From contig JANRLG010000189.1 of assembly GCA_033762835.1 (NCBI GenBank), positions 12,185-76,184 on the forward strand: a stretch of 64,000 nt of DNA, in the 5' to 3' direction. Of the stretch, positions 657 to 64,000 are shown piece by piece. The position numbers and the translations under genes were made by a program. Each line of letters begins with the position of its first letter. Position 1 is the first letter of the stretch. The notes under the pieces are model-generated. The model was given only the letters and a program-made list of their open reading frames with translations, did not search any database and was not told where the DNA came from. The DNA is from Thermoanaerobaculia bacterium (GTDB taxonomy: Bacteria > Acidobacteriota > Thermoanaerobaculia > Multivoradales > DATKCC01).

Positions 657-693
657 GATGAAGGAACGCGAGGCGGAGCCTATAATGCCGCCG

Positions 694-1389
694 ATGCCCA
701 CTAGCCCGTCGCGATTTCCGCAGCTCTTCGCCGAGCTGCCGGAGCCCTTTGCCGCCGCCTTCGACCCCGAGAACCCCTGGTGGCTCCTCGGTGAGCCGTT
801 GGACGGCGTTCTCGCCGCTTTACCCGAGCGCCGGATCGATGGCGAGCTAGCGCCCGGAGTCCATCTGCTCGGTTCGCGGATCTTCGTCGCCGCGGGGGCC
901 AAGATCGGCCCGGGAAGCGTGATCGAAGGGCCGATCTGGATCGGCCCCGGGGTCGACATCCGGCCCGGAGCTTACCTGCGTGGCGGCGTGTGGCTCGGCG
1001 CCGGAGCCATCGTGGGCGCGTCTACGGAGGTCAAGCGCGCCATTTTCCTTCCCGGCGCCCGGGCTCCTCATCTCAACTACGTGGGCGACTCGATCCTCGG
1101 CTCGGGGGTCAACCTCGGGGCCGGCACGATCCTGTCGAACTTCCGCCACGACGGCGGCGAGATTCGGGTGCCGACCCCGAACGGCCCCATCGCCACCGGC
1201 CGGCGCAAGCTCGGGGCCATTCTCGGGGACGGGGTGATGACCGGCTGCAACTCCGTTTGCCACCCCGGCGCGATCGTCGGCCGTGGCACGCAGCTCTACC
1301 CCGGAGTCCAACTGCGCGCCGGGATCTATCCGTCAGATTCGATCGTCAAGTTGAAGCAGGAGATCGAGGTAGTGGCGAAGCGGGACTGA
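694..1389 (+). CDS. Hexapeptide-repeat (left-handed beta-helix) transferase, similar to the GlmU C-terminal domain
   Basis: HLNYVGDSILGSGVNLGAGTILSN and GRRKLGAILGDGV; ATG 694 follows TATAAT 681-686 (alternative starts 655, 685). Confidence 0.8.
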   Translation: MPTSPSRFPQLFAELPEPFAAAFDPENPWWLLGEPLDGVLAALPERRIDGELAPGVHLLGSRIFVAAGAKIGPGSVIEGPIWIGPGVDIRPGAYLRGGVWLGAGAIVGASTEVKRAIFLPGARAPHLNYVGDSILGSGVNLGAGTILSNFRHDGGEIRVPTPNGPIATGRRKLGAILGDGVMTGCNSVCHPGAIVGRGTQLYPGVQLRAGIYPSDSIVKLKQEIEVVAKRD

Positions 1390-1404
1390 GTCCAGCTCGC
1401 CGAG

Positions 1405-2022
1405 TCAGCTCCGCAACACCCAAGGCTCCGGCCGCTTCGGCCGGTTCATGAAGGCCTCGAGCTCCGCGCGGAGGTTCCTGTCCGCGGCGAAACCGCGCTC
1501 CTCAATGAGAGCGAGCGCCTCGAAGGCGAGCTTCAGTTCGCCGACGTCGGCCGCATTCACCAAGTGATCGAGGTCGCCGAGGTCTTGAAGCCGATTGGCA
1601 AGAAGTTTGAGGGCGATGAGGTGGCCAGTCCGAGCGACGGGAAGCGGTCGATCGGCGAGCACCGGCATAGGTTGAGCAGCCTCAACGACCTCTTTTTCAA
1701 TACCAGCCAGCGAGAAGATGAGATCGATACAAGGCTGATCCCGTGCCAAAGTGCGTACCAATCGAACCAACGCCAAGCCACTACCATCTCGGCGTTCGAA
1801 GATCGCACCGTCCGGGCGGTCCATCCAGCCGTCTTCGTGGAAGCTCAGGACCAACTCCATGGCCTGCTTCTGGCTCGTGACGCCGAGAGCAAGATCGACA
1901 TCGCGAGTGGTTCGGGCCACGGAGCGCAGGCCAACGGCCATTCCGCCGACCAGGGCGAACGGTTGTTTCCTCTCGCGCAACAGTCGCTCCGCTTGGAAGA
2001 GGAGCACATGGAGGTCATTCAT
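1405..2022 (-). CDS. Nucleotidyltransferase-fold protein (AbiEii/DUF6036-like putative toxin)
   Basis: ALVGGMAV..RTTRDVDL motif and C-terminal LIALKLLA.R.QD.D. Confidence 0.75.
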   Translation of the reverse strand: MNDLHVLLFQAERLLRERKQPFALVGGMAVGLRSVARTTRDVDLALGVTSQKQAMELVLSFHEDGWMDRPDGAIFERRDGSGLALVRLVRTLARDQPCIDLIFSLAGIEKEVVEAAQPMPVLADRPLPVARTGHLIALKLLANRLQDLGDLDHLVNAADVGELKLAFEALALIEERGFAADRNLRAELEAFMNRPKRPEPWVLRS

Positions 2023-2219
2023 TTCGAGGGCCGCAGCACTACGGAGGGCGGAACCTGAGTGTTGTCCGCATCCTGGAGCCAGCGCCGAAAGAGCTCCGCG
2101 ACCTCTTCTTCGGTAGCGTTGGGGTTGCGGTGGCGAAGTCCCGTCCGCATGGTCTCGACAGCGAAGTCGTAGAGATCCAGAATCGCTTCGAACCGGGCTT
2201 TGGCATCGGGCGGACTCAT
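2019..2219 (-). CDS. Small partner protein of the nucleotidyltransferase (putative antitoxin)
   Basis: 66 aa, GLRHRNPNATEEEV; ATGA overlap with the downstream gene; TAGAAT upstream. Confidence 0.65.
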   Translation of the reverse strand: MSPPDAKARFEAILDLYDFAVETMRTGLRHRNPNATEEEVAELFRRWLQDADNTQVPPSVVLRPSK

Positions 2220-8189: not shown

Positions 8190-9722
<1,533 letters not shown>

Positions 9723-24379: not shown

Positions 24380-24499
24380 CGGAAACCTCCAGACGGTCCT
24401 TATAACACCGCCGAGGGCCCGTCGGCTCTCGGGCTCGGCACGGGCTCGCTCTGCAAAGGTGCTGCCGCTTGCGCGGGAGCGGCTACAATCGTCGGTCTC

Positions 24500-43926: not shown

Positions 43927-44030
43927 GGTGGCTTGCTTCCGCCAAGAACCCGATGCTACGGTCTCGCGGACCAAGCCCCCCGAGGGAGCCGTGGAATAAC
44001 TCCCTACCCTCTGGCGCTTCACAGGAGACC

Positions 44031-47464: not shown

Positions 47465-47467
47465 GGG

Positions 47468-47547
47468 TCGGTCGAACGGAAGTTCGGCCGCTACCTCAAG
47501 AAAAGCAATGACTTCCGGGGGTAGCGGCCGGCCTTTAGGCCGGCCGA
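47468..47547. repeat. REP/BIME-like inverted palindrome doublet, copy 2
   Basis: Reverse complement aligns with 21684-21760 including the spacer; lies between convergent genes. Confidence 0.8.
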
Positions 47548-47562
47548 TCTGCGGCTTCAGAC

Positions 47563-48906: not shown

Positions 48907-48966
48907 GATCTTCCTCCGGAATCGTTGGCCCGACTCTATCGCGGCGCGGGGGCCGATCCGCGCGGC

Positions 48967-51483
48967 TCAGGCGCTCCGGCGGCGATTCCACGCCGCGGCG
49001 CCCGCGGCCAGCAAAGCGAGTCCCGCTCCCGAGCCCCGCGGGGGGAATCGCCGCGGAAAGGGCGTCAGCTCGCCGTCGCCGAGCACCACGACCCCCGCCC
49101 AGGCTTCCGCCGGGTATCCCGCTGCGAGCAGCTCGGCGCGCACGGCGCGGGCCGCCGTCGAGACCCCGCGGCCCTGGGCGAGCTGGCGGTAGAAGCGGGT
49201 GAAAAACGCCCGGGCATCGTCGTCGCGCAGAGGCCACAGGCTGGCGACGACGGTGCGCGTCCGCCGGCCCTCGAAGAAGGCCCGTGCGAGGCTCAAGACC
49301 CCTTCGCCGCGCAGGACAACGCCGGCGGCACTTTCGCAGGAGGACAACACGACGAGCTGGCCGGCGACCGGCAGGCCCGTGATCTCCCCGAGTTCGAGCC
49401 GGCCGTCGGCGGTTTCCCCGCCGCCCAGGTAGATGGCCGAGCGCTCGGCGTCGTCTTCATCAACGACGGCGTGGGTGCCGAAGTGGAGGACGCCCGCGAG
49501 CTGCCGCGGCTGGCCGAGCAAGATCGCCTCCGCTGCCGACTCGCCGAGGTCGAGCCGGCTGCCCGCCCCCAGGATACCGGCGATCTCCCGGCCCTCCCGG
49601 CGCGCGTGGGGCAGGGGCCGCAGGATCTGGCCGCCCGGCCCCGCGGGCAACGGCGCCGGGTCCGCCACGATCCACCCCGGCCGGTCCGGGTGCTCCGCGG
49701 CAGCCTGCCGCCAGCGCTGCCAGAGTGTCGCCGAGGGTACCCGGGTGACCGCGAAACGCTCGCCCAAGGGCGGCGCCTCGGCCCGTTCCCGCAGCAGCTC
49801 GAAGGGCAGCTTGTGCAACACGTCGTCGGGCACCAGCACCAGCCGACGAACCGTTCCCGGCAGCTCGGCCAAAGCCGGCCCCAGCAAGTCCCCATAAAGC
49901 GCCACCGCCGTCTCTTCCTCCCGCCCATCCCGCCCCGTCGTCAACCCCACGAACGTCCCTATCGCCTGCCGCCAGAACGTGCGATCCCGCTCCAGCCGGT
50001 GGACTTTCACCCCCTCCCGCGTGACCACCAAGAGCCAGCTGCCACCCCCGAAATCCCCGGACCAATCCACCCAAGGTGCGATCTGGTAGGAGAGCAAAGC
50101 CTCGTCCGGCGCCAAGGCAGCGCGGACCTCGTCGAGGGTCGCGAAGTCGTCGGCCGTGGGAGCGGAGGTCGACAGCTGATCGAGCAGCGAGCGGGCGCGC
50201 ATGCGCTCGGTGACCTGGAAGGCGGTACCAACAGAATCGCTCGTTTCCTTTGCCGCCGAGGCCATGTCCAGGTGCCGGCCGGACAGCCAGAGATAGTCGT
50301 CAACCCAAGTGGAGAAGAGCTCCGCTCTGCGATTTCGCTCTTTCTGACCCTTTCGGAGCTGTTCGATCTCGCTCAGGGCTTGACTCGCCTGCTCGCTGCG
50401 CTGGCTCGATGGCGAATACTCCCACGAAGCCCTCATCAGCTCCCTCAGTGCGTTAGTCTCCGTCAGAGCGTCCCCTATTCCACGGGCAAGCCTGACTGCC
50501 TCTTGAGCTGTGGCAAAGGCCGCATCCGGTCGAGTTCGGCCGAGTACCCGCGCCAAGCCACTCAGGCAAAAGGACCGAGTTCTGTCATCTGGCGCTGCGT
50601 CGAGACATGCCTCGAAGTGGCGTTCGGCAGTTTGGCCCGCTGAGAGGGCCGCCAGTATCCAAAGGGAGTAGGCTTTGCTCTGGTCCTGAGAGTTCAGTCT
50701 GGCCGTGGCTTCGACTGCTTGCACGGCGACCTCGCGCACAGATTCACGATCGACTTCGACCGTATTTAGCATCCACTTGTCAAATGCAGATCTGGCAATT
50801 CCGTATCTTGCCATCGCTGTCTCGCCAGGCGTCCTGGCCGACTGAAGTGCTTCGCGAAAAACAGCGCCAGCTTCATCGAAGCGTCCAAATTCCAGGAGGG
50901 CGTGGCCCTGGTAACGCAACACCTCGAGCCACCCAGCGGTTTTCTCCACCCCCACGATATTTCGAATGGCATGGATGGCGACGAGTTCGAAATCCAGTGC
51001 TCCGGTGTATTCTGCTGTCATAAGCAGGTCGATGAATTCTTTCAGGCGCGGGAGTGGCTGCGTCTTCTGAACCGCCGCATCCACTGCCTGGGACAGCTGG
51101 TCTTCGGCCGCGCTTCTTCGATCTAACTTCAGGTAGAGTCGAGAAGCATTGAAACCGGCTAGAACATCGCCCCACCCCGGCTCGCTGCTGAGTTCGAAAA
51201 GTCTCGCTGCCTCAATAAACAGCTGACTGGACTTCTCGAACTCTTCTCGCTCCTCAAACGACTGGCCTTCGAGGTAGGCAAGGCGCGGATCGGCTGGGTA
51301 GCGGTCGCGGACGGCCACCAGCAGCGAAGGAAGAGCTGGGTCGGCGAGGTGTCGGTAAACACAAGAGAGCGCAGCGCTTCCTAGGGAAGGTTCGTAGGCT
51401 GCCAAACAGCTCTCGACTTCCAAGGCCGCCCCAGCTGTGGTGCCGCTGAGTATCAGGATGACTGCTAAGCAGAGACGGTTCAC
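48967..51483 (-). CDS. Exported TPR-like + CHAT (caspase-like) protease
   Basis: Signal peptide; ERMRARSLLD, LVPDDVLHKLPFE, HFGTHA (His), LSSCESA (Cys), VASLW, WAGVV; hydrophobic tail + RRR. Confidence 0.9.
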   Translation of the reverse strand: MNRLCLAVILILSGTTAGAALEVESCLAAYEPSLGSAALSCVYRHLADPALPSLLVAVRDRYPADPRLAYLEGQSFEEREEFEKSSQLFIEAARLFELSSEPGWGDVLAGFNASRLYLKLDRRSAAEDQLSQAVDAAVQKTQPLPRLKEFIDLLMTAEYTGALDFELVAIHAIRNIVGVEKTAGWLEVLRYQGHALLEFGRFDEAGAVFREALQSARTPGETAMARYGIARSAFDKWMLNTVEVDRESVREVAVQAVEATARLNSQDQSKAYSLWILAALSAGQTAERHFEACLDAAPDDRTRSFCLSGLARVLGRTRPDAAFATAQEAVRLARGIGDALTETNALRELMRASWEYSPSSQRSEQASQALSEIEQLRKGQKERNRRAELFSTWVDDYLWLSGRHLDMASAAKETSDSVGTAFQVTERMRARSLLDQLSTSAPTADDFATLDEVRAALAPDEALLSYQIAPWVDWSGDFGGGSWLLVVTREGVKVHRLERDRTFWRQAIGTFVGLTTGRDGREEETAVALYGDLLGPALAELPGTVRRLVLVPDDVLHKLPFELLRERAEAPPLGERFAVTRVPSATLWQRWRQAAAEHPDRPGWIVADPAPLPAGPGGQILRPLPHARREGREIAGILGAGSRLDLGESAAEAILLGQPRQLAGVLHFGTHAVVDEDDAERSAIYLGGGETADGRLELGEITGLPVAGQLVVLSSCESAAGVVLRGEGVLSLARAFFEGRRTRTVVASLWPLRDDDARAFFTRFYRQLAQGRGVSTAARAVRAELLAAGYPAEAWAGVVVLGDGELTPFPRRFPPRGSGAGLALLAAGAAAWNRRRSA

Positions 51484-51887
51484 GGAGGTGGAATCGGGTC
51501 AACTTTGCCGGTCCCGCTACCGGTTCCTGGGGGAGAAACGCCATTCGTTTCTTCCCAGCCGAAGCCGGTGCCGATACCCGTCGAACCAGTTTGGATCTCC
51601 ACGGTCCCGGTGCTCCCGTCACCCTCCTCTCCCTCGTTGTTCCGGGGAGCATTCGCCATCAACATGGCGAAGCCTTCTTGGCCCTCCTGAGGGGGCGGCG
51701 GCGACGGGCTCTTGCCGGCCGGAAACACGAATCGTTGATGGTAACGCCTCGTCTGAAACTCAATGAAGAAGAAGTACTTACGGCTACCCCACTTGAAGAA
51801 GGGGATCTTCACCGCGGCGGGGCCGAAGTTGCCAGAAGATGTCGCGCCGGTCCCGGCGCCTTGAGACCCAGAATCTGAACTCGCCAT
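51480..51887 (-). CDS. Small Gly/Pro-rich protein translationally coupled to the CHAT gene
   Basis: GGAGG SD; GTGA overlap with the CHAT start; NGVSPP motif. Confidence 0.65.
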   Translation of the reverse strand: MASSDSGSQGAGTGATSSGNFGPAAVKIPFFKWGSRKYFFFIEFQTRRYHQRFVFPAGKSPSPPPPQEGQEGFAMLMANAPRNNEGEEGDGSTGTVEIQTGSTGIGTGFGWEETNGVSPPGTGSGTGKVDPIPPP

Positions 51888-52053
51888 ACCAAGATCCTCC
51901 CCGATTTTCGGGCAAGCCTACGACGGATCAGCCGTCGTGGCGCATCGCGCGGAAACTGCTGCGGATGCAGTCGAGGACGATGGAGAGGCTGGAAGATCCT
52001 CACAAACTAGAAAAAGACCCCGACGACTGCACTTCCCGCCAACGGCTCCCCGA

Positions 52054-52082
52054 TTGACCGTATGACCGGGTCGGCGTACTCT
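52054..52082 (+). promoter_or_regulatory. Sigma70-type promoter for the two small peptide genes
   Basis: TTGACC-17 nt-TACTCT, the same hexamers as the atp promoter. Confidence 0.6.
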
Positions 52083-52114
52083 CTGCTTCGCTTGATTCAA
52101 GAAAGGGGCACGGG

Positions 52115-52330
52115 TTGTTCAGTCTGACACTTATCCTCGCCTTGTTTTTCGGCAGCCTCGGTGCAATGCAGAAGAGTCCTCCCTCGCAAGCTCCTGGAGT
52201 TAGACTCGATGCGGCCACACAAAATGGAGTTACCCCACCGGCAGATGGACCCGGGTCCGGTCCCCCCGGCAGTACCGCATGGAGCGAGGGAGTCGCTCCT
52301 CCAGACACAGGCCACCCTGAGGACAACTGA
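52115..52330 (+). CDS. Small secreted Pro/Gly-rich peptide precursor 1 (71 aa)
   Basis: GAAAGGGG SD with TTG; signal peptide; NGVTPP and EGVAPP motifs. Confidence 0.6.
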   Translation: MFSLTLILALFFGSLGAMQKSPPSQAPGVRLDAATQNGVTPPADGPGSGPPGSTAWSEGVAPPDTGHPEDN

Positions 52331-52421
52331 GCGAATAGGAAAGCCCGTCTACGATGCGGCGTCCCACGTCCGCCGGCTTTTCCGAGGCCAGATCGGTTCA
52401 AGAACGAAAGGGGCTGCGACC

Positions 52422-52610
52422 ATGAAGAGCGCTTTCCTGATCTTCGCGCTTCTGTTCGGCCAACTCGCCGGGCTTGCTTGGGAGTTCTCCGTTGCGGCAG
52501 GGTCGACACCGGCGGATGACGACAAGTCTGCTGGCCCTCCAGGACAGACTGGGGTCACACCGCCGGATATCGACCCTTATCCGGGCCCGAAGCCTCCCCC
52601 TGCGGGTTAG
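52422..52610 (+). CDS. Small secreted Pro/Gly-rich peptide precursor 2 (62 aa)
   Basis: GAAAGGGGG SD with ATG; signal peptide MKSAFLIFALLFG; GPPGQTGVTPPD. Confidence 0.65.
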   Translation: MKSAFLIFALLFGQLAGLAWEFSVAAGSTPADDDKSAGPPGQTGVTPPDIDPYPGPKPPPAG

Positions 52611-52634
52611 CCAGCGGTCGAAGCCCCTCCCCCG

Positions 52635-53384
52635 TCACTCCTCCAGCGTCAATCGAAACGTCGGCGGGCAGGGCGAGCGGGTGCCGTCGGGGAAGACGGC
52701 TTCCACTTGCCACACGAGGTGGCTGGCGGGGCGGAGTTTGGTGAGCTTCTCGGCCGGGACTTCGTACTCAGTCGCGGTCAGGCCGGTGACCTGGACCACG
52801 GTGTCGAGGCCGGAGGTTCGGATCGAGAGGTCGTAGTAGACCGCCTGGGGGACGGGTTTCCAGGCGACCTTGAAACCCTTGCGGGTGACGGGGGCGTTGT
52901 CGCGTACCAGGGATTCGATCAACGAGCCGGTCGCGGCGGGCGGGCCCGGCACCGCGGGTGACGAGGCGTCGGGCACCGGCCGGTCGCCCGTGCCGCGGTA
53001 TCCCGGGTCGTCCGTGGGCGGCGACTTGGGCAGGAACACGGCGAAGCCGAGGGCGCCGACCAGGAGGGCGGCGGCGGCGGCCCAACGTGGGTCCCACCAA
53101 CTCGAGCGGGCCGGGCGCAGCGGCAACGGGGCCACCGTGCCGGAACCTGCCGTGTCGTTCAGCTTCTCGCGCTCGAGGGCGAGCGCCAGGCGCCATTCCT
53201 CGGCACATTCGGCGCAGAGCGCCAAGTGATCCACCAAGCGGGCGGTAACCTCGGGAGCCAGGCGGCCCGCCGCGGCGTCCCAGATTTTCTCCGGGTCGGG
53301 ATGGTCGGCGGGCGGTGGGCCGACCGCGGGCGCCTGCCAGGCGGCGCGCAATCGGTCGATCAAAAGGTCGTCTTCGGTGTTCAC
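52635..53384 (-). CDS. Membrane anti-sigma factor (zf-HC2, TM, periplasmic beta domain)
   Basis: HLALCAEC (HxxxCxxC), TM WAAAAALLVGALGFAVFL; GTGA coupling to the sigma gene. Confidence 0.85.
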   Translation of the reverse strand: MNTEDDLLIDRLRAAWQAPAVGPPPADHPDPEKIWDAAAGRLAPEVTARLVDHLALCAECAEEWRLALALEREKLNDTAGSGTVAPLPLRPARSSWWDPRWAAAAALLVGALGFAVFLPKSPPTDDPGYRGTGDRPVPDASSPAVPGPPAATGSLIESLVRDNAPVTRKGFKVAWKPVPQAVYYDLSIRTSGLDTVVQVTGLTATEYEVPAEKLTKLRPASHLVWQVEAVFPDGTRSPCPPTFRLTLEE

Positions 53385-53938
53385 GGCGCGTGTCCCTTGT
53401 CCTCTAAACATTGGCGGAGATCCGCCATGCCACGGTAAATCAAGTTCTCCGCCTTCTTGGCGTCCCAACCCAGCCGCCGCCCGACATCGACGACGCTGTG
53501 GCCTTGCAGGCGAAGCGTCACAGCTTGGCGCCGGGAGGCGATCAGGGCGCCTAGACACCCGCGAATCGCCGAACCCAGCTCGCGGCTCGCCGCGTGATCG
53601 CTGGGACCGGGAGATCCGGTGGGTAACTCGATCGCACCCGCTTCATCCTCGATCGGCACTTCCCGGCGTCGGCGACGGCGTCGAATTTCATCGACTACCG
53701 CGCTGTACGCCGCTCTCTTCAGGTAAAACGAAGAGAGCGCCGTTTCCTCCTCACGCCGCCGTAACACGTCCACCACCCGCAGCAACGCCACCTGCACCAA
53801 GTCCTCGGACTCGGCCGTCAGCCAGCTCGGGCAACTGTGATTCACCGCCCGCGTGAGAGCCGCCCGCAACTCGCGGTAAAGCGAGTCGGGAAGCTCACGC
53901 CGTGCTGGATCTCGAACAACTGAAGGGACCGTCATCAC
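53381..53938 (-). CDS. ECF RNA polymerase sigma factor
   Basis: SEDLVQVALLR, AYSAVVDEIRR, region 4 AENLIYRGMADLRQCL. Confidence 0.9.
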   Translation of the reverse strand: MMTVPSVVRDPARRELPDSLYRELRAALTRAVNHSCPSWLTAESEDLVQVALLRVVDVLRRREEETALSSFYLKRAAYSAVVDEIRRRRRRREVPIEDEAGAIELPTGSPGPSDHAASRELGSAIRGCLGALIASRRQAVTLRLQGHSVVDVGRRLGWDAKKAENLIYRGMADLRQCLEDKGHAP

Positions 53939-54072
53939 CGCCCGGGAGTCTAGCCCGGATTGCCCCCGGGCGAACTTTCTCTGCCCGCCTGACAGATCGA
54001 CGCCCCGGATTCCGTCGTCATGGTTTGTGGGCGAAAGGATCGCTCACGACGACCCCCGAGGAGGGAGCTCCC

Positions 54073-54507
54073 ATGACCGTGATCGACCTTTCCGTGTTGT
54101 CCGCCTTCTGGCTCGGAGGCCATGCCCGCGCCGCCGCCGAGCGCCTCTACGCCAACCATCCCGACTGGGCGCTGCCCGTGGCCTGGCGTTGCGATTTTCG
54201 GCGCCAGCTCGACACTTGGGTGGGCTGCGAGCAGATCACCCCCGTCGACGCCGACCAGATCTGGAACGCCGTGCTCTGCCAGGTGGCCGACCGCGAGTAC
54301 TTCTGCGGCTCGCTCGACGTGCTCGAACTCGTCGCCCGCCATGGCCTCGGTCGGTTCGACGCCGAGGTGGTGTCCTTCGCCCGCGCCCGTGGCCAACGCT
54401 TCCACACCGCCAACCCCCGCCTGGCGGCACTCTTTCCCGACCTCGCCACCCTCCTAACCGACGTCGCCCCCGAGCGCCGCGTCTGGGTCGCCCGAAAGGC
54501 GGCGTGA
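54073..54507 (+). CDS. Orphan, degenerate PIN-domain (VapC-like) protein
   Basis: MTVIDLSVL, WALPVAWRCDFR, FDAEVV, HTAN; SD GAGGAGGGAG. Confidence 0.65.
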   Translation: MTVIDLSVLSAFWLGGHARAAAERLYANHPDWALPVAWRCDFRRQLDTWVGCEQITPVDADQIWNAVLCQVADREYFCGSLDVLELVARHGLGRFDAEVVSFARARGQRFHTANPRLAALFPDLATLLTDVAPERRVWVARKAA

Positions 54508-54514
54508 TCATGAC

Positions 54515-54543
54515 TTGTATTCAGCAAAAAAATCTTGTACGGT
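54515..54543 (+). promoter_or_regulatory. TA operon promoter
   Basis: TTGTAT-17 nt-TACGGT in an AT-rich patch with a CTTGTA direct repeat. Confidence 0.5.
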
Positions 54544-54562
54544 CCAAGGCGGAGGTTTCATC

Positions 54563-54784
54563 ATGCGCACCACCGTCACCGAACGGGGCCAAACCGTCGT
54601 CCCCGCGAAGATTCGTCGCGACTACGGCATCGGAACGCAGTCGACCCTCGAATGGATCGACGACGGCCACACGATCCGCGTCGTTCCGCTCCCGCCGGAC
54701 CCGATCCGCGCGGCCCGCGGCAGCTCCAAGGGGCTCGGGCGACGCCTCGCGGAGGAGCGGGAACGTGAGCGCAGCGAAGCCTGA
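54563..54784 (+). CDS. AbrB/MazE/SpoVT-family antitoxin
   Basis: MRTTVTERGQTVVPAKIRRDYGI; GGAGG SD. Confidence 0.88.
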   Translation: MRTTVTERGQTVVPAKIRRDYGIGTQSTLEWIDDGHTIRVVPLPPDPIRAARGSSKGLGRRLAEERERERSEA

Positions 54785-55193
54785 TCGCTTCTTGCTCGAC
54801 ACCTCCGCGGTCCTCGTCCTGACCGACGAAGATCCGGGCTGGGACTTCGTGGAGAACCTGCTCGAGCGCGCCCGCGAGGGCGAAATCGAGGTCGTGCTCT
54901 GCGCGGTGTCGTTGATGGAGCTGTACTACGTCGCGTTACGCGAACAGGGGGAGGACCCGGCCGCGCGACTAGTGGCCTTGGTCAAGGCGTGGCCGATCTC
55001 GTGGATCTACCCCGATGAGCGCATGCTGCTCGCGGCGGGCCGGTTGAAGGCCCAGCATCGCCTGTCCTTCGCCGACGCCGTGGTGGCCGCCGCCGCGGCT
55101 CGGCGGCGGGCCGTCCTGGTTCACCGCGACCCGGAATTCGAGGGTTTGGCAGCGGCCGTGGCGCGCCAGGCTCTGCCCTACCGGGGGCGCTGA
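54765..55193 (+). CDS. vapC: PIN-domain toxin (VapC)
   Basis: LLDTSAV, SLMELYY, LSFADA, LVHRDPEF. Confidence 0.9.
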   Translation: MSAAKPDRFLLDTSAVLVLTDEDPGWDFVENLLERAREGEIEVVLCAVSLMELYYVALREQGEDPAARLVALVKAWPISWIYPDERMLLAAGRLKAQHRLSFADAVVAAAAARRRAVLVHRDPEFEGLAAAVARQALPYRGR

Positions 55194-55210
55194 GAAGGTC
55201 GAACCGTGGG

Positions 55211-55489
55211 TCAGACCTCGCCGATCGAGAACATCCGATCGAGGTCGTGGCGCGAGAAGACACGGAAGGCGGTCAAGGTCTCCGACGCCGTGATGCCGGC
55301 GACCTTGAGCATTTTGCCGGTCACCACGTCGGCCAAGGCGTCCGGGCTCGTGGTGCGCACGATGGCGACCAGGTCGAAACGACCGGCGACGGAGTAGACC
55401 TCGGTGATGCCGGTGATCGAGAGCAGCTCCTGAGCCACCTCGTTGATGCGATCCCGATCGACGTTCAAGAGCACGACGGAGCTGACCAT
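55211..55489 (-). CDS. Stand-alone Lrp/AsnC ligand-binding domain protein
   Basis: EVYSVAGRFDLVAIVR, SETLTAFRVFSRHDL. Confidence 0.85.
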   Translation of the reverse strand: MVSSVVLLNVDRDRINEVAQELLSITGITEVYSVAGRFDLVAIVRTTSPDALADVVTGKMLKVAGITASETLTAFRVFSRHDLDRMFSIGEV

Positions 55490-55556
55490 GGCGATTCTCC
55501 TCCCAGGGGTTCCAACGCCACCGGGCCGGCCGGAAGCGCCTGCTTATAATGCCATC

Positions 55557-56918
55557 ATGACTGCCCACTCCCCGCTCCACGTCCTCGGCGGTGGCCTCGC
55601 CGGCACCGAATGCGCCTTTCAACTTGGCCGCCGGGGCCTGCCCGTGGTGCTGTGGGAGATGCGTCCTACGAAAGCCACCCCCGCCCACAAGACCGGCGAC
55701 TTGGCCGAGCTCGTGTGCTCGAACTCCCTGCGCAGCGACGACCCGTTCCACGCGGCGGGGTTGCTCAAGCGCGAGATGGAGGCCTTCGGCTCCTTGGTCG
55801 TCGGTGCCGCGCGGCGGGCGGCAGTACCCGCGGGCAGTGCCCTGGCGGTCGATCGCGAGCGCTTCGCCGCCGAGATCCACGCCGGACTGGCGGCGGTATC
55901 TACCATCGAGATCCGGCGCGAAGAGGCGACGACGCTCCCACCCGGCGAAGTCGTCGTGGCGAGCGGTCCGTTGACCTCGGAGGCGTTGACGGCGTGCCTC
56001 CAGGCCCTCCTGGGCAGCGAATGGCTCTACTTCTATGATGCTCTGGCGCCCATCGTTGAGGCCGATTCCCTCGCCTTCGGCCGGCTGTTCGCCCAGTCGC
56101 GCTGGGATAAAGGGGATGGTGCCGACTACCTGAACGCCCCCTTCGACAAAGAGGGTTACCTGGCCTTCTACGAGGCCCTCACCACGGCCGAGTTGGCACC
56201 CCTCCACGACTTCGAGCAGGCGCTTTTTTTCGAGGGCTGCCTGCCGATCGAAGAGCTCGCCCGGCGCGGCGTCGACACCCTGCGGTTCGGGCCCATGAAG
56301 CCGGTGGGGCTGCGCGGCCCCGACGGCCGCCGGCCCTACGCCGTCGTGCAGCTGCGCCAGGAGAACCTGGCCAAGACGCAGTACAACCTGGTGGGCTTCC
56401 AGTCGCGCATGAAGTGGGGCGATCAAGGCCGCGTATTGCGGATGATTCCGGGGCTCGAAGCGGCGGAGTTCGTGCGCTTTGGCTCGGTGCACCGCAACAC
56501 GTTCGTGAACTCGCCCACGCACCTCGACAAGCTGTACCGCTTGAAGGCCGAACCACGGGTACGCTTGGCGGGGCAGCTGACTGGCGTCGAGGGTTACCTC
56601 GAATCCGCGGCCACGGGCCTCGCGGCGGCCCTCCACGTGGTGACCGAACGCGCGGGCCGGACGCCCGAGCCCTTCCCCCCGACGACCGCACTCGGCGCCC
56701 TCGTGCGCCACCTGACGGAGTCGGACCCGCGCCATTTCCAGCCTGCCAACGTCAACTACGGTTTGTTCGAGGAGCTGCCCGAGCGGGCCAAGAAGCTCGA
56801 CCGCCGCCGCGTCTACGCCGAACGCGCTCACCGCGAGCTGCTCGCCTGGGCCGAGCGCCAGGGGCTGGCGGTCGACGCGAGCAAGCTCATTCCCGAACTC
56901 ACCGAGGTTCCGGCTTGA
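55557..56918 (+). CDS. trmFO: Folate/FAD-dependent tRNA (uracil-5)-methyltransferase
   Basis: GGGLAGTE, AELVCSNSL, FFEGCLPIE, FGPMKPVGL, GVEGYLES. Confidence 0.97.
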   Translation: MTAHSPLHVLGGGLAGTECAFQLGRRGLPVVLWEMRPTKATPAHKTGDLAELVCSNSLRSDDPFHAAGLLKREMEAFGSLVVGAARRAAVPAGSALAVDRERFAAEIHAGLAAVSTIEIRREEATTLPPGEVVVASGPLTSEALTACLQALLGSEWLYFYDALAPIVEADSLAFGRLFAQSRWDKGDGADYLNAPFDKEGYLAFYEALTTAELAPLHDFEQALFFEGCLPIEELARRGVDTLRFGPMKPVGLRGPDGRRPYAVVQLRQENLAKTQYNLVGFQSRMKWGDQGRVLRMIPGLEAAEFVRFGSVHRNTFVNSPTHLDKLYRLKAEPRVRLAGQLTGVEGYLESAATGLAAALHVVTERAGRTPEPFPPTTALGALVRHLTESDPRHFQPANVNYGLFEELPERAKKLDRRRVYAERAHRELLAWAERQGLAVDASKLIPELTEVPA

Positions 56919-57859
56919 GCCGGGCCGACAGTTTGCCGGCCTTGGTGGCCGGATATCTCCGGCATCTCGAGGGCGAACGAAATTTCTCTGCCCATACGGT
57001 CAAGGCCTACGGCACGGACTTGGCGGCCTTCGTGGAGTTCGTGGCCGCGGACGTGCTCGGCAAGCCACCGCGAGAAGTCCTTCCCGACGAGGTCGATCGC
57101 CTCGCGGTGCGCTCCTTCGTCGCCCAGGCGAGCCGCCGCGGTTTGGCGAAGTCGAGCCAGGGGCGTGCCCTGTCCGCCGTCAAGGGCCTGTTCCGCTGGG
57201 CCTGCCAGGAAGGTCACCTGGTGCTCAACCCGGCGATTTCGGTGAAGACGCCGAAGACCGAGAAGACGTTGCCGCGGCACTTACGCCCGGGCGAGACCGA
57301 AACTTTGCTCGAAGCGCCCGACACTAGCCAACCTCTGGGTCGGCGGGACCGCGCGTTTCTCGAGCTGCTCTACGCCACGGGGTTACGGGTCGGCGAGCTG
57401 GTGAGTCTCGATTGGACGGATCTCGATCTGTCCGCGCGGGTGTTACGGGTGGTGGGGAAGGGCGGCAAGGAGCGTATGGTGCCCTTCGGCCAGCCGGCGG
57501 CGGCGGCCCTGCGGGCCTGGCTGGCGGATTGGCAGGAGATCCGCGCCTTGGCCCGCACGGCAAGCGCGGAAGAGCCCGTGTTCTTGAATCACCGCGGCGG
57601 CCGGCTGACCGACCGTTCCGTGCGCCGCCTGCTCGACGGCCACGTGGAAGCCGCGGCCCTGGCAACCGGCGTCCACCCCCACACCCTGCGCCACACCTTT
57701 GCCACCCACCTGCTCGAGGCCGGCGCGGATCTACGCTCGATCCAAGAGCTACTCGGCCACGCCTCCTTGTCCACCACCCAGCGCTATACCCACCTCGACG
57801 TCGATCGCCTGCTGGCGGTCTATCGCCAGAGTCACCCGCGGGCGCGCGGGGAGAGTTGA
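56915..57859 (+). CDS. xerC: Tyrosine recombinase XerC
   Basis: RDRAFLELLYATGLRVGEL, GKGGKER, HPHTLRHTFATHLL, LGHASLSTTQRYT; trmFO-xerC-hslVU context. Confidence 0.92.
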   Translation: MSRADSLPALVAGYLRHLEGERNFSAHTVKAYGTDLAAFVEFVAADVLGKPPREVLPDEVDRLAVRSFVAQASRRGLAKSSQGRALSAVKGLFRWACQEGHLVLNPAISVKTPKTEKTLPRHLRPGETETLLEAPDTSQPLGRRDRAFLELLYATGLRVGELVSLDWTDLDLSARVLRVVGKGGKERMVPFGQPAAAALRAWLADWQEIRALARTASAEEPVFLNHRGGRLTDRSVRRLLDGHVEAAALATGVHPHTLRHTFATHLLEAGADLRSIQELLGHASLSTTQRYTHLDVDRLLAVYRQSHPRARGES

Positions 57860-57879
57860 CTGCTAGAATGCCCGCTCCG

Positions 57880-58431
57880 ATGACCACTCTCCGTTCGACG
57901 ACCGTCCTCCTCGTCCGCCGCGGCGGTCTGACCTGCATGGCCAGTGATGGCCAGGTGACCATGGGGCAGTCGACCGTGGTCAAGTCCGGCGCGCGCAAAG
58001 TGCGGCGCGCGGGCAAGGCGGGTAGCGTGCTGGTTGGCTTTGCGGGCGGTGGTGCCGACGCTTTGGCGTTGTTCGCTCGCCTCGAGGCCAAACTCGAGGA
58101 GTACTCGGGCAACCTGGAACGCGGCGTCGTCGAGCTCGCTCGCGACTGGCGCACGGACCGGGCGCTGCGCCAGCTGGACGCCTTGATGCTGGTGGCCGAT
58201 CGGGACCGGGCGTTCCTCGTGGCCGGCAACGGCGAGTTGCTGCAACCCGACGAAGAAGGCGGCGCGGTCGCCGTCGCCATCGGTTCCGGCTCGAATTTCG
58301 CTTTGGCGGCTGCCAAAGCGCTGTTGCGCCACACCGCGATGCCGGCGCGGGACATCGTCGTCGAAGCCATGGGGATCGCCGCCGACATCTGCGTCTTCAC
58401 CAATCACCACCTGACGATCGAAGAGCTCTGA
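57880..58431 (+). CDS. hslV: ATP-dependent protease peptidase subunit HslV
   Basis: STTVL, DGQVTMG, KVRR, WRTDRALRQL, IGSGSNFA, ICVFTN. Confidence 0.96.
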   Translation: MTTLRSTTVLLVRRGGLTCMASDGQVTMGQSTVVKSGARKVRRAGKAGSVLVGFAGGGADALALFARLEAKLEEYSGNLERGVVELARDWRTDRALRQLDALMLVADRDRAFLVAGNGELLQPDEEGGAVAVAIGSGSNFALAAAKALLRHTAMPARDIVVEAMGIAADICVFTNHHLTIEEL

Positions 58432-58464
58432 GCGGCCACGAGCCGCTGGAGCCGGGCCGTACCG

Positions 58465-59883
58465 ATGTCGAGTAGCACTGAGAATCCTTCCGCGAGCTTC
58501 GACAGTCCCGGGGTCTCCCCGCGGGAGATCGAGAACATGACCCCGCGCGAGATCGTCGCGGAGCTCGACAAATACGTCGTCGGTCAGCACCGAGCCAAAC
58601 GCGCGGTCGCCATCGCCCTGCGCAACCGCTGGCGGCGCCAGCAGTTGCCGCCGGAGTTGGCGGAGGAGATCGCGCCCAAGAACATCCTCATGATCGGCCC
58701 GACCGGCGTCGGCAAAACCGAGATCGCGCGCCGACTCGCCAAGCTCGCCCGCGCGCCCTTCTTGAAGGTCGAGGCCTCGAAATTCACCGAGGTGGGTTAC
58801 GTCGGCCGTGACGTCGAGTCCATGGTGCGCGACTTGACCGACATCGCCGTGGCCATGGTCAAGGAGGAACGCCGCCTCGCGGTGTGGGAAACCGCCGGCT
58901 CGCGGGCCGAGGATCGCCTCCTGTTGCTGCTCGTGCCGCCGCCGAAGATTCCCGGCATCTCGAGCCGCCCCGATCCCGACGAAATGAGCGAACCGCGGGA
59001 CGACCTGGCGGGCACCCGCGAGAAGTTCCGCGAGCGCCTGCGCACGGGCAAACTCGACGACAAGATGGTCGAGATCGAGATCGAAGAAAGCGCCTTCCCG
59101 AGTCTCGAGAACCTGCCGCCCACGGGCAACGAAGAAGTGGGCCTCAATCTCAAGGAAATGATGCCCGGCCTGTTCAACCGCCGGCGGCGCCAGCGCGTGC
59201 GGGTCGCCGAGGCGCGCGAAATCCTGACCCAGCAGGAAGCCGACAAACTGATCGACCGCCAGCAGTTGGCCCGCGAGGCCCGGCAACGGGTCGAGCAGGG
59301 CGGCATGATCTTCCTGGATGAAATCGACAAGATCGCCGGCCGCGAAGGCAGCCGGGGGCCCGACATCTCCCGCGAGGGCGTTCAACGGGACTTGCTGCCG
59401 ATCGTCGAAGGCACCACCGTGTCGACCAAGTACGGCATGGTCAAGACCGATCACGTGTTGTTCTTCGCTGCCGGAGCGTTCCACGTCTCGAAGCCCTCGG
59501 ACTTGATCCCCGAACTCCAGGGGCGCTTCCCGATCCGCGTCGAACTCGACGCCCTGACCGAGGACGACTTCGTGCGCGTCCTGACCGAGCCCGAAACCGC
59601 CTTGACCAAGCAGTACACCGCGCTGCTGTCGACCGAGGGCCTCGCCCTCGGGTTTACCCCGGGAGCCGTGCGCGAGATCGCGCGTCTGGCCGTCGAGGTG
59701 AACGCCACCACCGAGAACATCGGCGCCCGTCGCCTGGCAACGCTCATGGAGCGCCTGCTGGATGAAGTCTCGTTCGAGGCCCCCGACAGCGACGAAACCA
59801 CGATGACGATCGACGAGGACTACGTCCGCGGCACCCTCGCGGACATCGTCCAGAACCAGGATCTATCGCGTTATGTACTGTGA
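58465..59883 (+). CDS. hslU: ATP-dependent protease ATPase subunit HslU
   Basis: [36 protein letters not shown]. Confidence 0.97.
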
Positions 59884-60967
59884 ACCCCCGCGTCGTCTCC
59901 TGCTGGCCGCCACCGTTCTCGCCGTCCTCGGCTTGCCCGCCTGCGGCAAGAAGGGCGATCCGCTACCGCCCGTACGCCTGGTGCCCGCCACCACCACGGC
60001 CTTGAGCGTTGCGCACCGCGGTCGCGAGATCCTCATTGCCGTGCCGTACCCCACCGCCACTGCCGCGGGTACGCCGTTGCCGGCGCTCGAAGAGCTGTCT
60101 TTGTGGAGCTTGACGCTGCAACCCCCGGCCGGACCCGCGGGAGTGCCGCCGCCGCCAGTGGCGCCGCCGGACCCGCGGCAGTTCAGCGTTCAGGCCCAGG
60201 TGGTGGACCGCCTCGATGCCGCCGGCATCGGCAGTTCGGTCCAGGGGGATCGCATCCTGCTGCGCCGGACGATGCCGGCGCCCCCTGCCGACGGCAGCCG
60301 CCAGGTCCTGGTGTTCGCCATCAAGACCCGGGCGGCGGGCGGCGAGGAGTCGGCCTTCTCGAACCTCGGGCAGGTCGAGGTTCAACCGCCGCCGCCCGCC
60401 CCGCGCAGTCTCCAAGCCGAGGGGGAGGCCGACGGCGTGCGGGTGAAGTGGGAAGCCCCGGCCGGCGACGGCACGGTGGCGGGCTTCCACCTGTATCGCC
60501 GCGAATCGACCTCCAAGGTCTACGGCACGCCGCTGGCTACGTTGACCACCGAGCGCGAATACCTCGACCGCGGCGCGCCCCTGGGCAGCCAACTCATCTA
60601 CACGGTCACCACCGTGGCCGCCCGTGAGCCGGTGGTGGTCGAAAGTGGCGTCGAAGCGGAGATCGAAGTCGTGCACCGGGACCGTTACCCGCCGCCGTCG
60701 CCCCGCGGCATGGTCGCCCTCGGCGAAGAGGGCCGCGTCCGGCTGCTGTGGGACCCGGTCACCGCTCCCGACCTCGCGGGTTACGTCGTGTACCGACGCG
60801 ATCCGGGCAGTGAGGACTTCCGCCGTATCGCCGGACCGGTGACCGCCACCGAGTTCGGCGAGTCGGATCTCCTGGCCGGCGAGACCTACCTCTACCGGGT
60901 GACGGCGGTCGACCGCGCGGGCAACGAGAGCGAACCCTCGGGCGCGGCGGCGGGGCGCATTCGTTAG
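59873..60967 (+). CDS. Lipoprotein with fibronectin type III-like domains
   Basis: [13 protein letters not shown] lipobox; [22 protein letters not shown]. Confidence 0.82.
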
Positions 60968-61801
60968 ATGTACCGGCTCTCCGGCGGCGGCAACGACTTC
61001 CTGGCCCTCGCCGAGCCCGCGGCGCCTCCGTCCCGGGCCGACATCCGGGCCTGGTGTCGCCGCGGCGTCTCCCTTGGCGCGGACGGCCTGTTCACCCTCG
61101 AGCGTAACGGGGCGGACCGGGTCCGCATGACCTACTGGAACGGCGACGGTTCCGACGCGGATCTGTGCTTGAACGGTACCCGCTGTGCCGCTCGGCTGGT
61201 CCACCACCTGGGCTGGTCGACGGGGGAAGTGGTGGTCGAAACCGGTGCCGGGCCGTTTCGGACCCGGATCGTCGACGATCAGAACGTTGCGATCGAGCTG
61301 CCGGCGCCCACCGAAACCCCGGTCGTGCGGATCCCGTCGTGGCAAGGCGAGGGCTTCCCGGGGCGCTTCGTCGTTACCGGGGTGCCACACTTTCTGCGCC
61401 CGGTCGCCGGGGACCTCGGTGCCGCTCCGGTCACCCTCGAAGGGCCGATTCTCCGGCGCCACCCGGACTTCGGAATCCCCGGCACCAACGTCGATTGGGT
61501 GCGCACGGTGTCGCCCCACCAGCTCGAGATCCGCACCTTCGAGCGCGGTGTCGAAGGCGAGACCTTGGCCTGTGGCTCGGGTGTCATGGCAGCGACCCTC
61601 GCGGGGATCGCTGCCGGGGAGCTCGTTTTCCCGGTCGAAGTCCTCACCGCTGGCGGCTTCCGCTTTCGGCTCGACGGTACGGTCGGGCCCTCGGGCCTGC
61701 CGGTGGCCTGGTCTTTGACCGGGGATGCCCGGCTCGTGGCGGTGGTGACACCGGAGCCGGGAGCCCTGGCGGTGCCGAGCCCGGCGCGATGGACGCCGTG
61801 A
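60968..61801 (+). CDS. dapF: Diaminopimelate epimerase
   Basis: GGGNDF, GADG, LCLNGTRC, GVPH, GTNV, ERGVEGETLACGSG. Confidence 0.92.
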   Translation: MYRLSGGGNDFLALAEPAAPPSRADIRAWCRRGVSLGADGLFTLERNGADRVRMTYWNGDGSDADLCLNGTRCAARLVHHLGWSTGEVVVETGAGPFRTRIVDDQNVAIELPAPTETPVVRIPSWQGEGFPGRFVVTGVPHFLRPVAGDLGAAPVTLEGPILRRHPDFGIPGTNVDWVRTVSPHQLEIRTFERGVEGETLACGSGVMAATLAGIAAGELVFPVEVLTAGGFRFRLDGTVGPSGLPVAWSLTGDARLVAVVTPEPGALAVPSPARWTP

Positions 61802-61805
61802 GTCC

Positions 61806-62486
61806 GTGAGCCGCGATGCCCCTGGGCCGCGAGTCGCGGTCGTCGTTCCCGCCTTCAACGAAGCCGACACCGTGGCCGAGGTGCTGGCGGCGCTGCAAGC
61901 CATGACCCTGTGGGACGAACTGGTGGTGGTCTCGGACGGCTCGACCGACGACACTGCCGCCATCGCCCGCGCCGCGGGGGTGACGACCGTCGAGCTCAGA
62001 GCGAACGGCGGCAAGGGGCACGCGCTCGCGGCCGGCGTCGCGGCCACGACGGCCCCCGTGTTGCTCTTTGTCGACGCCGACATTTTGCGACTTTCGGAAC
62101 CCATGCTCTTGAGCCTAGTGGCGCCGGTGCTCGCTGGCCGCGCCGCCATGAACGTCGGCATCCGCCATCGCGGCGAGTTCCTGAACGCCGTGCAGCGCCA
62201 CTTCGGGCCACTGCTCTCGGGCATCCGGGCCCTCCGCCGCGAGGTGTTCCTGGTCGTTCCGGCCGAGTACCGCCGGGGGTTCCGCATCGAAACTGCCCTC
62301 AATCACTACTGTCGCCGGCTCGGCGGCCGCGTCGAGGTGACCGTGTTGCACGATCTCGGGCACCGCGTGAAAGAAAAGAAGCGGGGCCTGGGGCCGGGCC
62401 TGCGTGCGCGCGTGAGCATGTTCGCCGGAGTGTTCGGCGCCTGGCTGCGGTTGGTGCTGACCCGGTCGCCGACCCGTCTACCGTAG
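61806..62486 (+). CDS. Glycosyltransferase family 2
   Basis: VPAFNE, DGSTDDT, NGGKG, FVDAD. Confidence 0.88.
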   Translation: MSRDAPGPRVAVVVPAFNEADTVAEVLAALQAMTLWDELVVVSDGSTDDTAAIARAAGVTTVELRANGGKGHALAAGVAATTAPVLLFVDADILRLSEPMLLSLVAPVLAGRAAMNVGIRHRGEFLNAVQRHFGPLLSGIRALRREVFLVVPAEYRRGFRIETALNHYCRRLGGRVEVTVLHDLGHRVKEKKRGLGPGLRARVSMFAGVFGAWLRLVLTRSPTRLP

Positions 62487-62497
62487 ACTTGCACCCT

Positions 62498-64000
62498 ATG
62501 AAGAGCCTCTGGAACGACACCGAGGCCGCGGGCTTCTCCGGCGACCTCGGCCAACGCGTTTACACCTCGCGGCTGCTCGGCCGCGACAAGTCCCTCGTGC
62601 TGCACGGGGGCGGCAACACCTCGGTCAAGACCCGGGAGACGACGCTCCTGGGCGACGAGGTCGAAGTCCTGTGGGTCAAGGGCAGCGGGTGGGATCTCGA
62701 GACGATCGAGCCCGCGGGCTTCACCCCCCTGCGCCGGGCGCCGCTGCTGCGGCTGGCGCGGCTGCCGAAGCTCTCGGATCCGGAGATGGTCAACGCCTTG
62801 ATGACGGAACGGACCGACGCCGCGGCCCCGGTACCCTCGGTCGAGGCGATTCTTCATGCCGTGTTGCCGGCGAAGTTCGTCGACCACACCCACGCCGACG
62901 CCGTGGTGACGATCACCAACACGCCGGACGGCAAGGCCCGCGCGCGGGCCCTCTGGGGCGATCGGCTGGTCGTGGTGCCCTATGTCATGCCCGGCTTCGA
63001 GCTGGCGCGGGTGGCGGCCGAGCTCTTCGAACGCGAAGCGGGGGAGCGGACGATCGGCCTCTTGCTGCTCTCCCACGGCATCTTCAGCTTCGGGGCCACC
63101 GCCCGGGAGTCCTACGAACGCATGATCGAGCTGGTGGGCCTTGGGGAGGCGTTTTTGCAGGCGGCGGGTGCCTGGCACTTGCCGGCACCGAGCGTCGACC
63201 CGGGGCCGCCATCTCCTCGCATCGAGACCGCCCGGCTGCGGCGGGACTTGGCCGCGGCGGCGGGATTTCCCCTCGTGCTGCGCACCGAGCGCGACGCCCG
63301 CACCCTTGCCTTCGCCCGCCGGCCGGACGTTGCCGAGCTGTGCCAGCAAGGGCCGGCGACGCCGGACCACGTCATCCGCACCAAACGGCGCCCGCTGCTC
63401 GGCCGCGACGTTGCAGCCTTCGCCGACGCCTACCGCTCCGAGTTCGCCCGTTGTGCCGCTCGGGCCGGCGAGCCGAAGACGATGCTCGACCCGGCGCCGC
63501 GGGTGGTGCTCGACCCGGAGCTCGGTCTCGTCACCGCCGGCCGCAGCGCCAAGGACGCCGCCATCGCCGCCGAGATCTACCGCCACACCTTGGACATCCA
63601 GGAACGGGCGGCGCTCCTGGGTGGCTTCCGGGCACTGCCGGAACAGGATCTGTTCGACGTCGAGTACTGGGACTTGGAGCAGGCCAAGCTCGCCCGCGCC
63701 GGCGCACCGCCGGTGCTGGCCGGGGAAATCGCGCTCGTCACCGGCGCGGCGTCCGGCATCGGCCGGGCGGTGGCGGAGGCGCTGCTCGCTCGTGGGGCCG
63801 CCGTCGTGGGTTTCGATCGCGACCCGCGGGTGGCCGACGTCAGCCGGAAGCTCGACTTTCTCGGCGTGGTCGGCGACGTGACCTCGCGGGACGATCTCGA
63901 GCGGGTGCTCGATACGACCGTGGCCACCTTCGGGGGCCTCGACATCCTGGTCCTGAACGCCGGGGCCTTCGCCCAGGGCAGTGCCATCGCCGGGCTGTCG
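62498..64000 (+). CDS. Bifunctional class II aldolase/short-chain dehydrogenase (RhaD-like), truncated by the window end
   Basis: LHGGGNTSVK, VKGSGWDL, PSVEAILH, DHTHAD, TPDHVIRTK, EYWDLEQAKL, TGAASGIG. Confidence 0.92.
   Translation, partial: MKSLWNDTEAAGFSGDLGQRVYTSRLLGRDKSLVLHGGGNTSVKTRETTLLGDEVEVLWVKGSGWDLETIEPAGFTPLRRAPLLRLARLPKLSDPEMVNALMTERTDAAAPVPSVEAILHAVLPAKFVDHTHADAVVTITNTPDGKARARALWGDRLVVVPYVMPGFELARVAAELFEREAGERTIGLLLLSHGIFSFGATARESYERMIELVGLGEAFLQAAGAWHLPAPSVDPGPPSPRIETARLRRDLAAAAGFPLVLRTERDARTLAFARRPDVAELCQQGPATPDHVIRTKRRPLLGRDVAAFADAYRSEFARCAARAGEPKTMLDPAPRVVLDPELGLVTAGRSAKDAAIAAEIYRHTLDIQERAALLGGFRALPEQDLFDVEYWDLEQAKLARAGAPPVLAGEIALVTGAASGIGRAVAEALLARGAAVVGFDRDPRVADVSRKLDFLGVVGDVTSRDDLERVLDTTVATFGGLDILVLNAGAFAQGSAIAGLS

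Follow-up and report, generated by a model that had tools for sequence, protein, structure and literature searches.

Several genes in a 64,000-nucleotide (nt) stretch of DNA from a Thermoanaerobaculia bacterium (contig JANRLG010000189.1, positions 12185-76184; hereafter the window) have a hexamer of the form TANNNT, resembling a -10 promoter box, 6-10 nt upstream of an ATG. Do these hexamers belong to promoters placed so close to the start codon that transcription begins on the codon itself or a few nucleotides before it? An earlier note on this DNA had listed eight such sites and had taken them as a sign of widespread leaderless or near-leaderless mRNAs. We found that TANNNT is strongly enriched at this position throughout the genome. 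We think it likely that approximately 14% of the genes are led by a box at the start codon and that their mRNAs are leaderless or nearly so.

All eight hexamers and their ATGs are at the coordinates given in that note. On the plus strand the spacers between hexamer and ATG measure 7, 10, 6, 10 and 8 nt, and those on the minus strand 9, 9 and 10 nt. As had been claimed, they are free of Shine-Dalgarno (SD) sequences; none of the eight (0/8) holds a GGAG-type word. Seven of the eight ATGs lie at the 5' end, or close to it, of a gene called without regard to upstream motifs (see below; the window has 48 such genes). The eighth (ATG 2219) opens an open reading frame (ORF) of 66 amino acids (aa), which is below the length range of the gene finder. 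The number of matches in the window is not in itself significant. TANNNT-N6-10-ATG was found 15 times on the two strands, compared to 9.0 +/- 3.2 times (maximum 18) in 200 dinucleotide shuffles. The signal in the window is the coincidence of boxes with gene starts and not the raw count.

We found that TANNNT is enriched upstream of gene starts genome-wide. The assembly containing the window (5.58 Mb in 324 contigs, 68% G+C) is from one of the soil-type Acidobacteria. We built a gene finder that uses three-periodic Markov coding potential alone and is blind to upstream motifs; it called 3600 genes, which make up 82% of the genome. TANNNT preceded 329 motif-blind starts (3393 genes) at gaps of 6 to 10 nt (69, 68, 79, 69 and 44, respectively), compared to approximately 15 per position elsewhere. 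This is the distance that the earlier note had claimed, and the lack of enrichment there that it had named as evidence against its reading is excluded. The box was found before 14.9% (237/1589) of ATG starts and 6.8% (81/1187) of GTG starts, and before only 1.6% (10/614) of TTG starts, which is the control level. Boxes were present before 0.37-0.54% of internal in-frame ATG, GTG or TTG codons, 0.35-0.51% of internal out-of-frame codons, and 0.8-1.7% of upstream out-of-frame codons. Over the four kinds of control, enrichment was 14- to 34-fold for ATG starts and 8- to 18-fold for GTG starts.

For a tally by gene, we called a start boxed if an in-frame ATG or GTG had TANNNT at a gap of 6-10 nt, and used boxed out-of-frame ATG or GTG codons as the control. 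The true start was allowed to lie within 90 nt on either side of the start called by coding potential. Approximately 14.2% of genes (478/3373) had a boxed start, compared to 28 and 14 genes in the other two frames. The boxed start coincided exactly with the coding-potential start in 318 of the 478 genes; the start codon was ATG in 346 and GTG in 132. The sites were spread over gaps 6 to 10 (106, 111, 108, 91 and 62). Their commonest hexamers were TAGACT (45), TACAAT (32), TACCAT (28) and TACACT (28), and TATAAT was found at just 8.

An excess was also seen without any annotation. Counted on both strands of the assembly, TANNNT followed by ATG occurred 216, 210, 182, 183 and 153 times at gaps 6 to 10, compared to approximately 106 times at gaps of 12-30 nt; with GTG in place of ATG there was a slight excess, and with CTG the counts were flat. 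The enrichment was specific to this hexamer. We compared the 64 patterns in which the first, second and sixth bases are fixed, using the 1547 ATG or GTG starts without an SD-like word. TAnnnT was present 295 times where 26.2 were expected (z = 52.6). It alone was strongly enriched, the runner-up being only 1.5-fold over expectation.

The sequence around the boxes has features of a promoter. When the 478 sites were aligned on the hexamer, 64% had G at -2 (background 33%) and 30% had T at -3 (background 17.5%); we therefore take these two positions as the TGn of extended -10 promoters. Within the hexamer, the third base does not differ in composition from background, and A and C are abundant at the fourth and fifth. 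In the spacer between box and start codon, C makes up 43-58% and A only 6-9%. Farther upstream, TTG was found at a spacing of 17-18 bp at 30 of the 478 sites, compared to 2-9 (approximately 4.5) for each other spacing; otherwise there was no positional information content. The ends of the spacers are also distinctive. C predominates at their last two positions, and ends without a purine exceed expectation 2.5- to 7-fold (70/111, 32/108, 17/91 and 13/62, compared to 26.7, 12.7, 5.2 and 1.8). In Escherichia coli, C-rich discriminators move the transcription start downstream. Spacer ends that are C-rich and free of purines would favor a start on the first base (A or G) of the start codon.

Boxed genes mark the heads of transcription units. 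The upstream neighbor was divergent for 54% of boxed genes; among SD-led genes the share was 24%, and among the remaining genes 28%. A neighbor on the same strand within 20 nt was found for only 11% of boxed genes and for 41% of SD-led genes; these distances are approximate, as they are based on the motif-blind gene set. Genes without a box have SD sites: GGAG, GAGG and AGGA peak at gaps of 5-9 nt, and no hexamers are more enriched than AAGGAG and GAGGAG. No match to a 16S rRNA, in which the anti-SD sequence could be read, was found in the assembly. Predicted starts of all kinds, including SD-led ones, have an RCC-ATG-like context, with C at -1 in 56%, C at -2 in 50% and a purine at -3 in 56%.

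For six of the eight genes, orthologues share the layout, with 0-1 control matches. (Orthologue counts include the locus in the window.) In trmFO (GIDA family; 55557-56918, plus strand), TATAAT at 55545-55550 is separated by 6 nt from ATG 55557. Among loci with at least 60% identity, 24/32 were boxed and none had a control match. The titles of these loci are Thermoanaerobaculia, Thermoanaerobaculum or Acidobacteria/Acidobacteriota, except for one 'uncultured bacterium'. Just 3/42 more distant loci were boxed, with one control match. Among species-representative genomes, the titles of TrmFO relatives are Thermoanaerobaculia or Acidobacteriota down to approximately 65% identity, which identifies the assembly as a metagenome-assembled genome of the class Thermoanaerobaculia.

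The second conserved site is that of hslV (57880-58431, plus strand). The box (TAGAAT, 57864-57869, preceded by TGC) is 10 nt from ATG 57880. Boxes preceded ATG or GTG in 20/24 loci from relatives in the same family or order, with no control match. Most orthologues have TG(C/G)-TACAAT (or TAGAAT) with a spacer that is nearly always 9 nt. The box moves with the start codon, whatever the number of residues that precede the conserved (S/A)TTV. Between start codon and (S/A)TTV, the residues of HslV orthologues are variable and number from 4 to 15; cleavage of a short propeptide, beyond Met alone, would presumably be needed to expose the catalytic N-terminal Thr. trmFO, a xerC-like tyrosine recombinase gene (56915-57859; PF00589, PF02899) and hslV are arranged head to tail on the plus strand (55557-58431). 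hslV starts shortly past the stop codon of the xerC-like gene, its box lying 5 nt after that stop. The conserved box suggests that hslV has an internal promoter within what appears to be a single cluster.

Conservation was also found upstream of two enzyme genes and an antitoxin gene. A class-V aminotransferase or cysteine-desulfurase-like gene (24500-25660, plus strand) has TACAAT at 24484-24489 and a 10-nt spacer before ATG 24500, which is also its motif-blind start. The conserved N-terminus, VYLDHNATT from residue 4 onward, fixes the start at 24500. Orthologous loci were boxed in 17/22 cases, with no control match. The gene for an LbH (hexapeptide-repeat) transferase (Pfam Hexapep; 694-1389, plus strand) has TATAAT at 681-686, a 7-nt spacer, and ATG 694 as both boxed and motif-blind start; 11/16 orthologous loci were boxed, compared to 1/16 for the control. 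On the minus strand, TAGAAT at 2234-2229 is 9 nt from ATG 2219, the start of a 66-aa antitoxin related to Rv0078B (2219-2019; PF18993, E = 7.6e-11). A boxed in-frame ATG was present in 10/11 homologous loci of this genome and its relatives, again with no control match. Family relatives have several copies of the antitoxin, almost every one with a start codon led by a -10 box. The antitoxin gene overlaps by 4 nt (ATGA) the gene for an AbiEii-like nucleotidyltransferase toxin (2022-1405, minus strand; 205 aa, PF08843, E = 7.7e-7), and the two form a toxin-antitoxin pair (1405-2219).

The sixth conserved site precedes a gene for a metallo-beta-lactamase (MBL)-fold or class-II phosphodiesterase-like protein (37215-36454, minus strand). 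Here TACACT at 37231-37226 is 10 nt from ATG 37215. At gaps of 6-10 nt, 8/23 loci were boxed, with one control match. When the gap was extended to 6-12 nt, a box was present in 20/22 loci, and none was found at other gaps from 0 to 30. We therefore consider this a conserved promoter with a leader of approximately 0-5 nt.

The two remaining sites were not conserved. TAAACT at 5045-5040 is 9 nt upstream of ATG 5030, which opens the gene for a PBP4-type D-Ala-D-Ala carboxypeptidase (5030-3489, minus strand). The stretch there, reaching 30 nt beyond residue 1, has no in-frame ATG or GTG candidate other than ATG 5030, which is followed by a signal-peptide-like N-terminus. A box was found in 4/23 loci, which equals the out-of-frame control (4/23). 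The weakest site is TAGACT at 62484-62489, with an 8-nt spacer before ATG 62498 of an aldolase-II/short-chain-dehydrogenase fusion (plus strand). Its first three bases (TAG, 62484-62486) are the stop codon of an upstream ORF (61806-62486). Only its own locus among nine (1/9) was boxed, with no control match, and some relatives have GGAGG-like words instead.

One site in the window was absent from the earlier note: TAGCCT at 16495-16500, 7 nt upstream of ATG 16508 of a gamma-glutamyltranspeptidase gene (16508-18205, plus strand). Other matches to the pattern were rejected. Two on the minus strand, ATG 959 (TAAGCT; 307-aa ORF) and ATG 62104 (713-aa ORF; G+C at third codon positions 0.76), would open ORFs overlapping a gene on the opposite strand, and we take them as chance matches. 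A boxed start at 9189 lies 78 nt inside a called gene and is probably due to chance as well.

Based on these results we suggest that about 14% of the genes, corresponding to approximately every fifth or sixth transcription unit, are served by extended -10 promoters of the housekeeping sigma factor, with the consensus TGnTAnnnT and a -35 element that is weak or absent. RNA polymerase would initiate on the first base (A or G) of the start codon or at most a few nucleotides ahead of it. Such an mRNA could not accommodate an SD sequence and would be translated by the leaderless route, in which the ribosome with initiator tRNA binds a 5'-terminal AUG or GUG. Other genes would use GGAG-type ribosome-binding sites (RBS), which would make this a mixed-type genome. 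The interpretation is supported because the enrichment of TANNNT is specific in position, the boxes have promoter features, they are restricted to ATG and GTG starts, boxed genes tend to head transcription units, and orthologues share the layout. The earlier reading of these mRNAs as leaderless or near-leaderless appears to be sound: every prediction that could be tested at the level of sequence held.

Several observations weigh against this interpretation or limit it. We infer both the transcription start sites and the mode of ribosome binding from motif, position, promoter context and conservation. The start calls are crude (615 of them are TTG), which makes the figure of 14% an estimate. 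There is at most a weak -35 signal. A minority of the boxes may be stop codons of upstream genes, as at 62484; at 75 of the 478 boxes, the TAA or TAG terminates a frame that is open for 80 codons or more. Comparative support was found for six of the eight sites in the window and not for those at 62484 and 5045. In addition, spacers of 9-10 nt make up 32% of the sites (153/478), and those of the MBL-fold orthologues reach 11-12 nt. These are longer than the 6-8 nt given for Mycobacterium in PMC6028130, and so many transcripts may have leaders of 1-5 nt.

The long spacers allow an alternative in which the promoters are real but transcription starts approximately 7 nt past the box, leaving 2-5 untranslated nucleotides on mRNAs from genes with spacers of 9-12 nt. 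This differs from leaderless initiation in degree, and the mechanism is shared. It would fit the sites at gaps 9 and 10, the near-fixed 9-nt spacer of the hslV orthologues, the spacers of 11-12 nt at 12/22 MBL-fold loci, and the moderately frequent purine 3 nt ahead of the ATG. However, the last two spacer positions are mostly C, the excess of purine-free ends would favor a start at the A or G of the codon itself, and leaders of 5 nt or less are conventionally counted as leaderless. We regard mRNAs that are short-leadered and not leaderless as an unlikely explanation.

TANNNT might instead be a signal for SD-independent translation, AU-containing and either unstructured or bound by ribosomal protein S1, within longer leaders made from promoters farther upstream. 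The motif does occupy a position like that of an RBS, and non-SD RBS motifs are described for other phyla (group B in the GeneMarkS-2 account, PMC6028130). By that same account, a non-SD RBS should also precede genes inside operons, and boxed genes are depleted there (11% compared to 41%). Nor do the boxes resemble a general AT-rich tract, as the third base of the hexamer is at background. TAnnnT alone is enriched among the 64 patterns. The upstream TGn is a contact for polymerase and not for the ribosome. We consider a translation signal very improbable.

Least credible of all is that chance, base composition, upstream stop codons or miscalled starts produced the pattern: the 15 matches in the window are within the range of the shuffles, TAG at 62484 is a stop codon, 75 boxes close long frames, and the boxes at 5045 and 62484 are not conserved, so that chance still stands for these two single sites, but genome-wide it is refuted by the 14- to 34-fold enrichment at ATG starts, the 478 boxed genes compared to 28 and 14 in the control frames, the annotation-free excess, the conservation in orthologues of six genes, and the scarcity (11%) of close same-strand neighbors.

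To return to leaderless or near-leaderless initiation, its signature is found throughout the class. For 151 Acidobacteriota genomes we computed an annotation-free index by subtracting the count of TANNNT-N16-19-ATG from that of TANNNT-N6-9-ATG. (The reversed pattern was a poor null, with 788 compared to 622 in this genome, and was replaced by the gap control.) All 12 members of the class, this genome included, were positive, with an excess of 20-102 per Mb and z of at least 3.8 in 10/12. Among the other Acidobacteriota, z was at least 3 in 33/139 genomes and at least 5 in 21/139, and these were clustered in certain families. Many families among the 151 genomes had no excess by this index, some of them at an equally low background. 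Related genomes in these tallies are not independent, and the tallies include the unpublished genomes G024, G049 and G150.

Gene-based counts were made for three of the relatives. In a genome of the same family (G156, 400 kb), 14.0% of genes (36/257) were boxed, with 1 and 0 in the control frames; the genome of the window, subsampled in the same way, gave 43/267. Two genomes of another family (G126 and G037, family f26), with an index of approximately 1.0, were intended as a negative control. Boxed starts were nevertheless found for 6.5% of their genes (20/308), mostly at gap 6, compared to 3 and 3 in the control frames. The index therefore misses low levels, and families with a ratio of approximately 1 should not be described as lacking such genes. 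Low levels of leaderless genes would seem to be general across the phylum. Contigs from soil and mud metatranscriptomes and metagenomes (three runs, shares of 0.06-0.09) match the part of the window from 44001 to 64000 in short pieces, mostly with 90-95% identity. Related populations occur in those soils and muds; contigs of relatives bear no information on RNA ends.

A more specific possibility, which we put forward tentatively, is that the class and several other Acidobacteriota families have kept the promoter-at-start layout on housekeeping genes (trmFO, hslV and the cysteine-desulfurase-like gene) across deep divergence. The box-to-AUG spacings of 9-12 nt, which exceed those of mycobacteria, and the C-rich, purine-poor discriminators could reflect either a lineage-specific rule for choosing the transcription start, by which the polymerase starts unusually far from the -10 box, or functional mini-leaders of 2-5 nt. 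If so, a little-studied phylum would become the third major bacterial model for leaderless translation.

How much of this was known? The earlier note had stated that leaderless translation has little documentation in this lineage. That appears to be so for the class and for experimental data: our search of full-text literature found no paper joining Thermoanaerobaculia with leaderless genes, and no report of transcription start sites by differential RNA sequencing (dRNA-seq) for Acidobacteria. It does not hold for predictions in the phylum, which are given in Table 2 of PMC3160421 and Table S4 of PMC6028130. Where PMC10783764 touches on the subject, it gives SD usage by class only. The leaderless signature was thus already known, including in this phylum. 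What is new is a class of Acidobacteriota with approximately 14% box-led genes; there is no new mechanism. The evidence in silico for leaderless genes is extended to a whole class, and single genes keep the layout over long evolutionary distances. There is also a practical side. Tools that expect an RBS often miscall starts in such genomes, and recognizing that about one gene in seven is box-led should aid annotation of Thermoanaerobaculia metagenome-assembled genomes (MAGs), for which there are almost no experimental data.

A close match among published surveys is the 'TA-led' leaderless signature of Zheng et al. 2011 (BMC Genomics 12:361, PMC3160421), TANNNT approximately 10-12 bp before the translation start. 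In their Table 2, all three Acidobacteria genomes (3/3) have it, with 13.3% leaderless genes (9.7-19.4%), compared to 14.2% here. As in their high-GC genomes, the middle three bases of the hexamer are uninformative. In contrast to that set as described, the spacing here is broader (6-10 nt, and up to 12 nt) and the upstream G or TG is prominent. Their three genomes are older than the description of MAG collections rich in Thermoanaerobaculia. GeneMarkS-2 (Lomsadze et al. 2018, Genome Res 28:1079, PMC6028130) placed 24 Acidobacteria in its groups as 17 A, 1 B, 2 C and 4 X. Group C, in which leaderless transcripts make up 25-50% of operons, is described there as having a Pribnow box approximately 10 nt before the first genes of operons and SD-type RBS before the others, and the genome analyzed here resembles it in both respects. 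The distance between box and start given there for M. tuberculosis is 6-8 nt; at 32% of our sites it is 9-10 nt.

Leaderless genes are also described in Mycobacterium and Deinococcus. Both have high-GC genomes in which a substantial share of genes is leaderless, with TANNNT promoters, a weak -35 and ATG or GTG at the 5' end. Toxin-antitoxin genes are associated with leaderless transcripts in these bacteria, and the antitoxin at 2219 echoes this. PMC6028130 cites Cortes et al. 2013 and de Groot et al. 2014 for those transcriptomes, which were determined by dRNA-seq, and the cases rest on mapped 5' ends and proteomics, whereas ours, in another phylum, is made from sequence and comparison. The likeness extends to the high G+C content, the TANNNT box, a -35 that is weak at best, the ATG and GTG starts and the substantial share of genes.

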